The translations under genes and the position numbers were made by a program. The notes beneath the pieces are model-generated. The model was not told where the DNA came from and made no database searches. It worked only from the letters and a program-made list of their open reading frames with translations. From Candidatus Anoxychlamydiales bacterium (GTDB lineage Bacteria; Chlamydiota; Chlamydiia; Chlamydiales; SM23-39), in assembly GCA_011064905.1 (NCBI GenBank), contig JAAKFW010000001.1:1-25208 (forward strand): a DNA stretch of 25,208 bases. The letters run 5' to 3'. This document shows, in pieces, positions 5,928-22,190 of the stretch. Positions within the stretch are counted from its first letter, which is position 1; every line of letters starts with the position of its first letter.

Positions 5928-6548
5928 ATGAGTAAATTATCTAGTATCTCTAATTTTTTTTATACAAAGCCAACTGATGCTAAAGTAGCATCTTTTGCCT
6001 ACACAGATGCAGAAGGAAAAAACCAAGATGGATCTGCAGTTACTCTAACAGCCGGAAAAGTTTCGCGCACAGTTATTTTTGATCCTGAAAAAGAGAATTA
6101 TCAAATATTAAAACCGACAGGCCTTAGCCTGAATCAAAGAGTTGTTGTTTTGGATGGCAAGGAAAATGAGTTTGTAGCAAAACCTATTTCCAGCACTCTA
6201 GATTTGAAAGGCTGGAAGTCAATCAAAGGTGGTGCTTTAGAAGATGAAGCTGCAACCAAAGCTTTTGCTTCAAATGTTGTTGAAAAGGCAATAAACTTTA
6301 AAGCTAGTAGATTCTTTAGATGGTCTGCTCAATCTGTTTCTAGTGGAGTTTCTAAAGCCTATTCTAATCTTAACGGCAAAAAAGTAGCTCTATTTACTAC
6401 AGGAGCACTACTAGCAGTTGGTGCATATTGGGTTTATACGAACCCTTCTGCTTGTGAAACAAAGCTTAAAGAATTTCAAGAGGCTGCAATTCACGATAGT
6501 AAAATGGCTAACGCTTGGTTAGGTTTTCGAGCGTACATTGGATTCTAA
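5928..6548 (+). CDS. Hypothetical protein with a single TM near the C-terminus (206 aa)
   Basis: AAGGAG SD; Ser-rich N-terminus MSKLSSIS; hydrophobic VALFTTGALLAVGAYWVY followed by about 36 aa. Confidence 0.8.
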   Translation: MSKLSSISNFFYTKPTDAKVASFAYTDAEGKNQDGSAVTLTAGKVSRTVIFDPEKENYQILKPTGLSLNQRVVVLDGKENEFVAKPISSTLDLKGWKSIKGGALEDEAATKAFASNVVEKAINFKASRFFRWSAQSVSSGVSKAYSNLNGKKVALFTTGALLAVGAYWVYTNPSACETKLKEFQEAAIHDSKMANAWLGFRAYIGF

Positions 6549-6577
6549 AAAAATAAATAAAAAATAGAGGAAAAAAT

Positions 6578-7297
6578 ATGTCAGTTAATAGCGCAACATT
6601 TGTAAAATCAGTTACCATTTCTTCTGAAGATGGTAACAAAATAGCAATTGCTACTAAGTGGAAGGTTAACTTTAAAGCAACTTCAACGCTGTCTTTCAGC
6701 TCTACAAAAACCTATCACGTTGTAATTCTAAACGAGCAAAAACGAAAGGGTTTGCTTGGACGTTCGAGCACTAATATGTCAGCCTATGTAACGAATACAA
6801 TCCCTAAAAAGAGTGATTTATCTAAATCTACTCTGCATTTAGAAGCTGATAGTGATAATGAAGTATTAAATGATCATTTAAAGAATCCAATATGCTCATT
6901 TAAAAAAACGGATTTAGTAGATCTAGGATTCACTATTGATAAAGCTGAGTTTGAAAAAGTTGACTCTATCTCTCCTGAGATAATAAAAAATATTGGAGAT
7001 TTTCTAAAAACATACTTAGAAGCAACTTCTTCTTCCTCGTCTTCTTCTTCTTCTTCTTCTTCTTCAAAAGCAGAAGAAAAAAAGGCAGAGACTAAAACTG
7101 AAGATAAAGTAGAAGAAAAAGCATCCGCTACCACAAAAAAAGATGCTCTCAAACCATTAGACTCATCTAAAGGTTGGACAAGACCTTCTCTATCCAATTT
7201 ATGTGCTAGAGCCACACCTTTAGTAGCTGGTTTTGTTTTCTCTGCTACAGCATTAGCTATATCTCATTTTGTATCCTCAGAGGGAAATATAGTCTAA
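6578..7297 (+). CDS. Hypothetical tail-anchored protein with Ser13 tract (239 aa)
   Basis: GAGG SD; S13 run and K/E-rich linker; C-terminal hydrophobic PLVAGFVFSATALAISHFV with an 7-aa tail. Confidence 0.82.
   Translation: MSVNSATFVKSVTISSEDGNKIAIATKWKVNFKATSTLSFSSTKTYHVVILNEQKRKGLLGRSSTNMSAYVTNTIPKKSDLSKSTLHLEADSDNEVLNDHLKNPICSFKKTDLVDLGFTIDKAEFEKVDSISPEIIKNIGDFLKTYLEATSSSSSSSSSSSSSKAEEKKAETKTEDKVEEKASATTKKDALKPLDSSKGWTRPSLSNLCARATPLVAGFVFSATALAISHFVSSEGNIV
7028..7066 (+). repeat. Ser-codon microsatellite: 13 Ser codons including a pure (TCT)8 run at 7040-7063
   Basis: TCT TCT TCC TCG (TCT)8 TCA read directly from the sequence. Confidence 0.95.
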
Positions 7298-20143: not shown

Positions 20144-20480
20144 TATTTTTTAAAATTCCTTCAAATCTTTAAAATGATAAAAAAGAGAACTAATATCAAG
20201 CAAAAAATTCTTTGAAAGAGGTTTTTAGCAATATTTACTTAAAAAAACTACGATAATATAAATTGGTAAATGAAGTAATCTGCTCATACATTCCAGATAT
20301 TTTTTTTGTAATTGCTCAATATTTTGAAAAGTTCGATCAAATATCTGATACGGAAGTTATCGAAATTTCAAGATAATTTCTAAAAAAAGCAGTAATTATA
20401 ATTTTAATTTAAAATCTAATTGTTTTTTTTTTAATTTTTATATAAATTTAATAAACAAAAAAAAATTAAGAGGTAATAAA

Positions 20481-22190
20481 ATGTGTGCATTTAAGGTTCT
20501 AACCTGGGACATGAGTACAGACTCAGATTATAAAGAAGCGCTAGAAAGAGCTAGAGAAGCTTCGCCAGTGGATACTATAGGATTCTCTGCTTTAAGAGAT
20601 AAAACGGCAAAAGTTGCTTTCAATTTTCTTATAGACTCAGGTAAACTCGATATATTATGTCTACAAAATATCGGATCTGATGAAGCTAAAATAAAAGATT
20701 TTTTAGGAAATGATTTCGATATATTAAGTGATGGCCAAGATACAGCTATCGCTTATAGAAGTAGATTTACTTATACAACCTCTTACTTCTCTAGCATAAA
20801 AGAGGGTCGTAAATATACAATTCTAACTCTAAAAGATAAATTAACCGAAAAAACATACAATATTGCATCTGCTAATATCTCTAGATTTAATTTAAGAAAT
20901 CCCATCGAAAGCATGCCTAGTGGCTCTAGCGGAGATGAAGAGTTAAAAGCGTTACTATCCAAATTAAATGAACTCGAAGCAGATGGAACTATTATCGGTT
21001 TAAATGCAAATACTACAAAAAAACATTACAAACCGAGACTAGATCTATTAGAGAATGCAGGGTTTAAAACCAATGATGTAGATACCACTGCAACAACCTA
21101 CAATAAATTTCTTAGTGAAACTCCCGATGAATGTAAGATTAAAATAGATTATATTTTTACAAAAAATCTCGCCTTACTCGATTCTAAAAAATTAAACCTT
21201 AAATTAGAAAAACCATTAGATAATCCAAGTATTCATATTCCTGTTATTGAAAAATTAGAATTTGATTCTAGTTTGCTTGAAAGCTCTAAAGAAGAAGAAG
21301 AAGAAGAATTGCCAGAGCTTGATACAAAAGACGTAAAAGGCTTATTAGCCTTACTTGATGATATAGATACAGTCTTTGATTATATAGATGAAAAAGACTC
21401 TCAGGAAACTCCAAATCCCTCCACAAAAGAAACTTCATCATTGTTTTCTATGGAACCTGAAGAAGAAGAAGAAAATTTCGATGTTAAGAAATTAGATTCC
21501 GATAGTGATCCAGAAGTTGAAGAGGCAGAAGAGAGTGAAGAAATTTCTATAGCTGATCATCTTTCTTCAAAAAAAGAAGAAAATTCTGATGTAAAGCCAT
21601 TAGATTCCGATAGTGATCCAGAAGTTGAAGAGGTAAAAGAGAGTGAAGAAATTTCTATAGATGATCCTCTTTCTTCAATAAAAGAAGAAAATTCCGATGT
21701 AACGAAATTAGATTCCGATAGTGATCCAGAAGTTGAAGAGGTAGAAGAGAGTGAAGAAATTTCTATAGATGATCCTCTTTCTTCAATAAAAGAAGAAAAT
21801 TCCGATGTAAAGCCATTAGATTCCGATAGTGATCCAGAAGTTGAAGAAGCAGAAGAGAGTGAAGAAATTTCTATAGATGATCCTCTTTCTTCAAAAAAAG
21901 AAGAAAGTTCCGATGACACAGAGAAATTAGATTCCGATAGTGATCCAGAAGTTGAAGAGGCAGAAGAGAGTGAAGAAATCTTTATAGAGGGTCCTCTTTC
22001 TTCAAAAAGAGAAGAAATCGATGACAGCATGAGCAAAGATTCTTCAACTACAATTACTTCAACCAAAGATGATAAAGAAAAACGAAAATCACCTTTAGTA
22101 AGCTGTATGAAAAAAACAGCTGTTGTAGCATTAGTTGCATTGGCATCAGTAGCTATACCTCTTGTTGGAACTTTTTACAGTTTTGAGTAA
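20481..22190 (+). CDS. Degenerate EEP (DNase I-like) domain, acidic tandem repeats and C-terminal TM anchor (569 aa)
   Basis: KVLTWD, DILCLQN, IIGLNAN, KIDYIF and PSIHIPV correspond to EEP motifs; five 36-aa acidic repeats; TM AVVALVALASVAIPLVGTFY; GAGG SD. Confidence 0.8.
   Translation: MCAFKVLTWDMSTDSDYKEALERAREASPVDTIGFSALRDKTAKVAFNFLIDSGKLDILCLQNIGSDEAKIKDFLGNDFDILSDGQDTAIAYRSRFTYTTSYFSSIKEGRKYTILTLKDKLTEKTYNIASANISRFNLRNPIESMPSGSSGDEELKALLSKLNELEADGTIIGLNANTTKKHYKPRLDLLENAGFKTNDVDTTATTYNKFLSETPDECKIKIDYIFTKNLALLDSKKLNLKLEKPLDNPSIHIPVIEKLEFDSSLLESSKEEEEEELPELDTKDVKGLLALLDDIDTVFDYIDEKDSQETPNPSTKETSSLFSMEPEEEEENFDVKKLDSDSDPEVEEAEESEEISIADHLSSKKEENSDVKPLDSDSDPEVEEVKESEEISIDDPLSSIKEENSDVTKLDSDSDPEVEEVEESEEISIDDPLSSIKEENSDVKPLDSDSDPEVEEAEESEEISIDDPLSSKKEESSDDTEKLDSDSDPEVEEAEESEEIFIEGPLSSKREEIDDSMSKDSSTTITSTKDDKEKRKSPLVSCMKKTAVVALVALASVAIPLVGTFYSFE
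21480..22022 (+). repeat. Five near-identical 108-bp tandem repeats encoding a 36-aa acidic unit
   Basis: TTAGATTCCGATAGTGATCCAGAAGTTGAAGA starts at 21492, 21600, 21708, 21816 and 21927 (periods 108, 108, 108, 111). Confidence 0.97.

Follow-up and report, generated by a model that had tools for sequence, protein, structure and literature searches.

Orphan proteins with alternating tail-anchor and cysteine-rich C-termini in an Anoxychlamydiales genome: candidate membrane-anchored type III secretion effectors

Here we describe six orphan proteins encoded in a 25,208-nucleotide stretch of DNA from Candidatus Anoxychlamydiales bacterium (assembly GCA_011064905.1, contig JAAKFW010000001.1, positions 1 to 25,208; hereafter the window), which we propose to be candidate substrates of a type III secretion system (T3SS) that may be anchored in host membranes by their C-termini. 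The window is contig C1 of a genome of 1.57 Mb in 264 contigs (30% GC, 92% complete), here called G000; numbers with C denote its contigs, and G001, G002 and G004 denote relatives. All open reading frames (ORFs) of the orphans were found at the coordinates given below, all on the + strand, and they are named by their first nucleotide: 5928 (group A), 6578, 8293 and 16021 (B, C and D), 16969 (group E) and 20481 (group F). Transmembrane (TM) segments were called by Kyte-Doolittle hydropathy over 19 residues (KD19), a crude hydropathy caller.

Four of the orphans are clear tail anchors, with 4-12 residues beyond the TM. Orphan 6578 (6578..7297, 239 aa) carries a poly-Ser and acidic linker ahead of Cys209 and a TM at aa 215-233 (nt 7220-7276, KD19 peak 1.77). 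A (CTT)13 microsatellite on the + strand (7026-7065) codes for its poly-Ser tract, and linker length and composition are highly variable among orthologs. In 8293 (8293..9009, 238 aa), the juxtamembrane pair Cys210-Cys211 stands immediately before the TM (scored at aa 210-228, nt 8920-8976, KD19 peak 2.10); the ATG at 8293 is the likely start, because the basic N-terminal extension that a TTG at 8251 would add is not conserved, and a lipoprotein reading built on that extension was ruled out by its absence in orthologs. Orphan 16969 (16969..17895, 308 aa) combines a Cys-rich region (aa 44-125, nt 17098-17343) with a long coiled coil, a TM at aa 278-296 (nt 17800-17856, KD19 peak 2.54) and an invariant Cys303 after it, and 20481 (20481..22190, 569 aa) has a predicted endonuclease/exonuclease/phosphatase (EEP) fold domain (aa 1-270), acidic repeats, Cys542 and a TM at aa 547-565 (nt 22119-22175, KD19 peak 2.38), the TM and an SCM(K/R)K motif being retained in orthologs at 38-74% identity. 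Orphan 5928 (5928..6548, 206 aa) is borderline: its weak segment at aa 153-171 (nt 6384-6440, KD19 peak 1.45) is sub-threshold and is followed by 35 aa, with Cys176 just after it and an aromatic, amphipathic C-terminus. Its orthologs (30-71% identity) have a TM in the same position with KD19 peaks of 1.8-2.3, and all named homologs come from Anoxychlamydiales metagenome-assembled genomes (MAGs). A preliminary description of this DNA had listed five orphans with a C-terminal TM, a count that stands for four of them and is doubtful for 5928, and a sixth with a CaaX-like end. The latter is 16021 (16021..16782, 253 aa), which lacks a TM and has a flexible tail ending in CSCCTVV (nt 16759-16779), that is, a CaaX-like box joined to a Cys cluster of the S-acylation type; its ortholog ends in SCCIVV.

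At the other end of these proteins, none of the six shows an N-terminal hydrophobic signal in a hydropathy test (maximum KD19 over the first 40 aa 0.05-0.85), in agreement with the earlier statement that a convincing Sec signal is lacking. The reported Ser/Thr-rich N-termini were also recovered, since the Ser plus Thr content of residues 2-15 lies at or above the 95th percentile of the 1331 genome ORFs in four of the six (5928, 6578, 16021 and 16969; binomial p ~9e-5), and 20481 reaches the 88th percentile. Searches of Pfam and NCBIfam returned no significant family for any of the orphans. The bilobed hydrophobic domain of ~40-60 aa that defines chlamydial inclusion membrane (Inc) proteins is absent from the window orphans, which have at most a single segment of ~19-30 aa, and they are therefore not Inc proteins. 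Elsewhere in the genome, bilobed Inc-like candidates lie at C57:11958-13214 as three tandem ORFs (122-138 aa), each with an N-proximal hydrophobic domain of 44-46 aa. Across the genus the orphans share 30-74% identity and their flanking genes 80-95%, and the C-terminal TM is kept at the same position in every ortholog of all five groups, even at 30-50% identity.

The preliminary description had taken the orphans as unrelated-looking, which applies to groups A, E and F, for which no homology to one another or to the remaining proteins was found. On the evidence of pairwise and profile comparisons, in contrast, 6578, 8293 and 16021 are paralogs of one new family. Orphans 8293 and 16021 match in BLASTP (E=8e-5); profiles of the N-terminal 150 aa (hhalign) join groups C and D with a Cys-tailed group of sister genomes (Cc) at probabilities of 74-93% and E down to 3e-7; and group B joined the C/D profile when more members were added (probability 86%, E=5e-6; reversed control E=0.76). 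A tblastn search of the orphans against their own genome returned no paralogs, so that the relationship is visible only by pairwise BLASTP and profile methods. The family motif (A/T)-x-K-W-x-V ... K-x-Y-x-V-T-L, in which Trp is invariant and Tyr near-invariant in all members, is followed by a Y-I-Q-I-D-like strand, an F-containing strand and an L-x-x-Y-L helix. An AlphaFold2 (AF2) model of 16021 from a 28-member alignment (mean predicted local distance difference test, pLDDT, 77.5; predicted template modelling score, pTM, 0.74) shows a beta-meander from residue 2 onward, a portion made of helices and a tail that is disordered and of low pLDDT, with residues 1-11 forming a confident beta-strand of the fold. 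Foldseek found no structure similar to this model in the PDB and the clustered AlphaFold database (best E 0.06, TM-score <0.3), and as modelled the soluble domain is a new beta/alpha fold.

All four sister species carry the family, and one other genus does so weakly; by these sequence searches it appears lineage-restricted, being found only in Anoxychlamydiales-type MAGs. HMMER over 1.8 billion representative proteins added only ~20 short metagenomic members, together with spurious beta-hairpin matches. Long cadherin-like or Ig-like beta-sandwich repeat proteins were rejected as homologs, only a beta-hairpin motif being in common, as was a match of 16021 in genome G018 that falls within an unrelated, conserved 363-aa ORF.

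The most informative feature of this family is its C-terminus. Among the 28 members of the family alignment (A3), 19 were scored as TM-bearing and eight are full-length proteins without a TM; P0012 has a sub-threshold TM, and P0027 is a 136-aa fragment that lacks the C-terminal region. In each of the 19 TM-scored members a Cys borders the TM on its N-terminal, cytosolic side (background 6%), as in S-C-C-N-L-K before the helix, V-T-C-N-R or N-L-C-G-R, although in four of the 19 it lies just inside the scoring window; P0012 has such a Cys as well. All eight full-length TM-less members, in turn, have at least two Cys in their last eight residues, compared with 10 of 1331 ORFs in the background (0.75%), in hydrophobic clusters 1-4 residues from the end (CCTVV, CCIVV, FCCGS, CCCNCE, FCCCFS, WCCFC, RCFC and FCCCSKT), and these Cys tails superpose on the juxtamembrane CC in the family alignment. 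A strict CaaX box is present in only two of the eight, 16021 (CTVV) and its ortholog (CIVV). The possibility that a TM remnant lies beyond the stop codon of 16021 was rejected, as the conserved downstream DNA resembles a TTGACA-type promoter for 16969: between the two genes (16784-16830) a TTGACA-type -35 box stands ~17 nt upstream of an AT-rich -10-like element, and the box, kept in G002 as TTGCCA, is likely part of the 16969 promoter.

An independent case of this alternation is seen in a leucine-rich repeat (LRR) family of the genome. Protein L049 (255 aa) ends in CTIL, whereas L042, 37% identical to it (E=3e-20), has a C-terminal TM; another LRR protein of the source genome is also TM-tailed, a TM-tailed LRR protein has a TM-tailed ortholog, and an LRR protein of a sister species likewise ends in CTIL, a canonical geranylgeranylation box. 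The LRR proteins in question lie at C130:591-1358 (L049), C163:80-697 (L042) and C189:2611-3570 (L043) of G000 and on C102 of G001 (L117:415-1479). With 2-13 matches per genome this LRR family is expanded in the genus, and most of its members have Ser/Thr-rich N-termini.

For two of the remaining orphans the soluble part gives a hint to its nature. Residues 1-268 of 20481 match Atlas structures of Exo_endo_phos (PF03372) clusters at TM-scores of 0.72-0.78 and have no Pfam match for an EEP domain; judged from these structure matches, the N-terminal domain has the EEP fold. It is followed by five acidic repeats of 36 aa (nt 21466-22017, Tandem Repeats Finder). Directly after 20481 lies an acidic 245-aa orphan (22422-23159), internally duplicated as seen from its two F-Q-x-R-D-[LI]-A-S segments, which is kept in G004, where the 20481 ortholog is absent, and which could be a partner or chaperone of 20481. 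In 16969 the residues of a zinc-finger-like region (C53, C72 and C104-P-x-C107) are invariant. Its nearest neighbours in a protein language model are RING clusters (score 0.91), while similarity to RING profiles is only sub-threshold (Prok-RING_1 in five of six members, best E 0.008; zf-RING_2 in one, 1.4e-4), a PDB profile search returned mixed zinc fingers at E >=0.01 at best, and the AF2 model, poor at aa 30-58, gave coiled-coil matches only in a fold search, which makes a RING-like domain no more than possible.

With respect to the organism, same-genus orthologs of the orphans carry the names 'Candidatus Anoxychlamydiales bacterium' K940chlam5, K1060chlam3 and K1060chlam4, the nearest named relatives are Anoxychlamydiales MAGs from Loki's Castle, and DNA of the window was detected in metagenomes of marine sediment. 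The genome encodes an injectisome, with a single FHIPEP/SctV gene directly followed by a HrpJ/CopN-type gatekeeper (C228) and a secretin on C199, as well as four to five TLC nucleotide transporters; a [FeFe]-hydrogenase large-subunit domain (C5:4265-5116, E=3e-97) fits the anaerobic lifestyle of the Anoxychlamydiales. Taken together, these traits identify a T3SS-bearing anaerobic chlamydia of a group for which a reliance on eukaryotic hosts has been called into question, with members possibly being non-symbionts (PMC7449678; bioRxiv 10.1101/577767), and whose hosts, as of 2026, 'remain largely unknown' (bioRxiv 10.64898/2026.04.11.717937). Six F-box or F-box-like proteins (C239:4505-5308, C52, C41:338-1396, C84:1945-2598, C173:955-1455 and C3) and two U-box proteins (C201:65-2875 and C225:3796-4884) exceed the Pfam cut-offs in this genome and none does so in 14 control genomes, which is an independent pointer to a eukaryotic target. 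Several of these proteins and of the LRR proteins share the Ser/Thr-rich N-termini of the window orphans. One U-box protein of 936 aa ends in WD40-like sequence.

Anchoring of this kind has precedents among bacterial effectors. It is eukaryotic enzymes that prenylate CaaX boxes and S-acylate Cys clusters or juxtamembrane Cys, and effectors of Legionella and Salmonella exploit these modifications; host lipidation is established for Legionella AnkB, PelH and LseA (CaaX, farnesylated) and for Salmonella SifA, which is prenylated and S-acylated at a Cys-rich C-terminus (PMC7542358, PMC4951486). Like these, the TM-less proteins described here have a Cys-rich or CaaX tail at the extreme C-terminus, without bacterial use and conserved in orthologs, in an organism equipped with a translocation system. 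The differences are that most of the present tails lack a canonical aaX and consist of CC clusters with Phe, Trp or Met beside them, that a genuine TM can take the place of the tail inside one family, that the soluble domain is, as modelled, a new fold, and that the candidate export route is a chlamydial T3SS, not the Dot/Icm system of Legionella. Effectors of T3SSs and of type IV secretion systems with TM domains, tail-anchored ones included, are an established class for which use of the host GET/EMC pathways has been proposed (PMC12981334; Krampen et al. 2018 as cited there). The orphans resemble this class in their single TM near the C-terminus, the lack of a Sec signal, the predicted cytosolic N-terminus and the predicted insertion into host membranes after translocation; they differ in that their hydrophobicity is not clearly 'moderate', in the additional conserved juxtamembrane Cys and in being known from sequence alone. 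Alternation between a TM and a Cys-lipid tail within this known class of membrane-targeted effectors is new. Chlamydial Incs are T3SS substrates that reside in a membrane of host origin with domains exposed on the side of the host cytosol, as is predicted here, and their bilobed domain is usually N-proximal, in contrast to the one C-terminal TM of ~19-22 aa, or none, of the orphans. SNARE proteins offer a further parallel, with tail-anchored syntaxins and VAMPs, often with a palmitoylated juxtamembrane Cys, serving the same purpose as the lipid-anchored Ykt6 and SNAP-25. The likeness is an analogy of anchoring logic only, and no relationship in sequence or fold was found.

Based on these data we consider it probable, at roughly 60%, that the orphans are T3SS effectors and that a tail anchor or host lipidation attaches them to membranes of the host or the inclusion. 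Secretion, lipidation, target membrane and the functions of the soluble domains are what we infer here, and the proposed sequence of events is as follows. The proteins would be exported unfolded through the T3SS by way of their Ser/Thr-rich, signal-peptide-free N-termini; a C-terminal TM would leave the ribosome only at termination and so may escape co-translational capture by the signal recognition particle and stay available for export. After translocation they would be anchored post-translationally in eukaryotic membranes of the host or the inclusion, with their soluble domains toward the host cytosol. Two interchangeable C-terminal modules may serve this purpose, either a tail-anchor TM whose cytosolic-edge Cys are candidate S-acylation sites, or, in place of a TM, a hydrophobic Cys cluster or CaaX box, which would be lipidated by acyl- and prenyl-transferases of the host. 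We favour this effector reading because, in a chlamydia that carries a T3SS, a fast-evolving, signal-less and lineage-restricted family conserves one position as either a Cys tail or a tail anchor. The preliminary proposal of a secreted, non-Inc class and of a eukaryotic host gains from the conserved TM, the alternation of the tails, the T3SS and the F-box and U-box proteins, but not in its original form of five or six unrelated orphans.

One could also regard the six proteins as a heterogeneous set without common biology, a small paralog family beside three unrelated orphans, with C-termini that are hydrophobic by chance in a genome rich in AT and with a codon bias towards Ile, Phe and Leu. 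AT-rich DNA readily encodes hydrophobic stretches, and the mutual unrelatedness of groups A, E and F fits such a view. The TM, in contrast, holds its position across divergent orthologs in all five groups, the N-terminal Ser/Thr bias is common to the set, and four of the 17 strict tail-anchor candidates of the genome fall inside the 25-kb window (Poisson p=2e-4). A Cys near the TM, which had been noted at the outset, proved real and conserved in orthologs, and across the genome 6 of 15 strict candidates carry it at the N-terminal TM edge, the share among other TM segments being 6.8% (odds ratio 9, p=4e-4). A mere chance assembly is hence quite unlikely in our view. The genome-wide comparison with a free-living bacterium that had been suggested did yield an enrichment, with one crude pipeline calling 30 of 1331 ORFs (2.25%) as tail-anchor-like here and 7 of 1117 (0.63%) in 1.2 Mb of E. 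coli K-12 (p=8e-4), and its strict version 17 and 2 (p=0.002), a 3.6- to 7-fold excess measured against a single comparator genome of different GC content. That restriction and the crude caller weigh against the effector reading, as do several further points: CaaX-like endings are not enriched genome-wide (5 against ~2.3 expected), the X residue of CTVV and CIVV (Val) is non-canonical, and the conserved Cys of 16969 and 5928 lie beyond the TM on the predicted non-cytosolic side, where S-acylation offers no explanation for them.

Alternatively, the orphans may be ordinary tail-anchored proteins of the bacterial inner membrane that act inside the chlamydial cell with their N-termini in the bacterial cytoplasm, the Cys-tailed relatives then being soluble or metal-binding variants. 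Such proteins are known from bacteria, and they insert independently of Sec (PMC3087755, PMC6794478); E. coli ElaB, DjlC and Flk and the Streptomyces tail-anchored membrane proteins share the layout of a soluble N-terminal domain with one C-terminal TM (PMC6794478, PMC3087755), and our own pipeline recovered the known ElaB. The tails are also hard to tell from inner-membrane helices: their median hydrophobicity peak (1.87) is only slightly lower than that of polytopic inner-membrane helices (2.03; p=0.03 on non-independent data), several tails match true helices, and those of 8293, 16969 and 20481 are fully membrane-grade, so that they could physically insert into the inner membrane of the bacterium; an argument from 'moderate TM hydrophobicity' was dropped, being only weakly supported without a clear separation from these helices. 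What an inner-membrane location leaves unexplained is the Cys cluster 1-4 residues from the stop in every full-length TM-less member and the canonical CTIL box that replaces the TM in an LRR paralog and is conserved across species. The E. coli and Streptomyces proteins, moreover, are conserved, serve in housekeeping or stress and have no Cys-lipid-tailed paralogs, whereas the family described here is confined to its lineage and diverges far more rapidly than the genes around it, and we judge this alternative unlikely. Very improbable, finally, is that the orphans are envelope or cell-surface proteins in which Cys and TM form a sorting or processing signal (MYXO-CTERM or sortase-type) or a site of disulfide cross-linking. 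A Cys directly before a C-terminal TM does resemble some C-terminal sorting domains, and chlamydial envelopes are rich in disulfide-linked Cys proteins. The N-terminal signal peptide that sorting requires is absent by the KD19 test, though, the features of LPXTG, PEP-CTERM and MYXO-CTERM domains were not found (no NCBIfam sorting-domain match at any E up to 1), a basic cluster following the TM is missing from most tails, and TM-less Cys tails would be unable to serve as such signals.

Further features of the window and the genome were recorded alongside the orphans. A pair of conserved 4-TM genes with similarity to Phage_holin_4_2 in Pfam (7350..8107, - strand) is flanked by the genes of groups A, B and C and serves here as a landmark outside the effector set. 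It is conserved in 82 of 103 family genomes, where it sits among housekeeping genes, which rules out a prophage context. Tail-anchored or Cys-tailed neighbours of the pair are confined to this genus and four related ones, the latter having beside it genes with a Cys-preceded TM tail or with a Cys tail such as FFSCCFK. A 679-aa orphan without a Pfam match (10907-12946), whose start overlaps the stop of an OppA-like gene by 4 nt (ATGA), is 57-89% conserved in the genus and has a paralog on C188 at 33% identity. On the - strand, 23224-25033 encodes two tandem, N-terminally anchored paralogs of ~305 aa, with a third copy at C254:15533-16372; relatives carry three in tandem. Two more tail-anchored orphans, both Ser-rich at the N-terminus and with a Cys immediately preceding the TM, lie at C101:8326-9027 (233 aa; F-N-C-M-K, resembling the S-C-M-K-K of 20481) and C243:9221-10966 (581 aa; K-K-C).

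In conclusion, a broader and more tentative reading, to which we give somewhat less than even weight, is that Anoxychlamydiales parasitise an anaerobic eukaryote and use an effector family of new fold in which TM tails with palmitoylatable Cys and Cys-lipid tails are interchangeable address labels. If true, a swap of the tail would let paralogs of one soluble domain reach different host membranes. Tails that only eukaryotic prenyl- and acyl-transferases could use, conserved and swapped in two unrelated families, would be evidence at the sequence level of a eukaryotic target, and the result thereby bears on the question of whether Anoxychlamydiales have hosts. Short peptides are testable in yeast or amoebae without a culture of the organism, and the alternation of TM and lipid tails may provide a simple comparative signature for membrane-targeted effectors in other uncultured symbionts.

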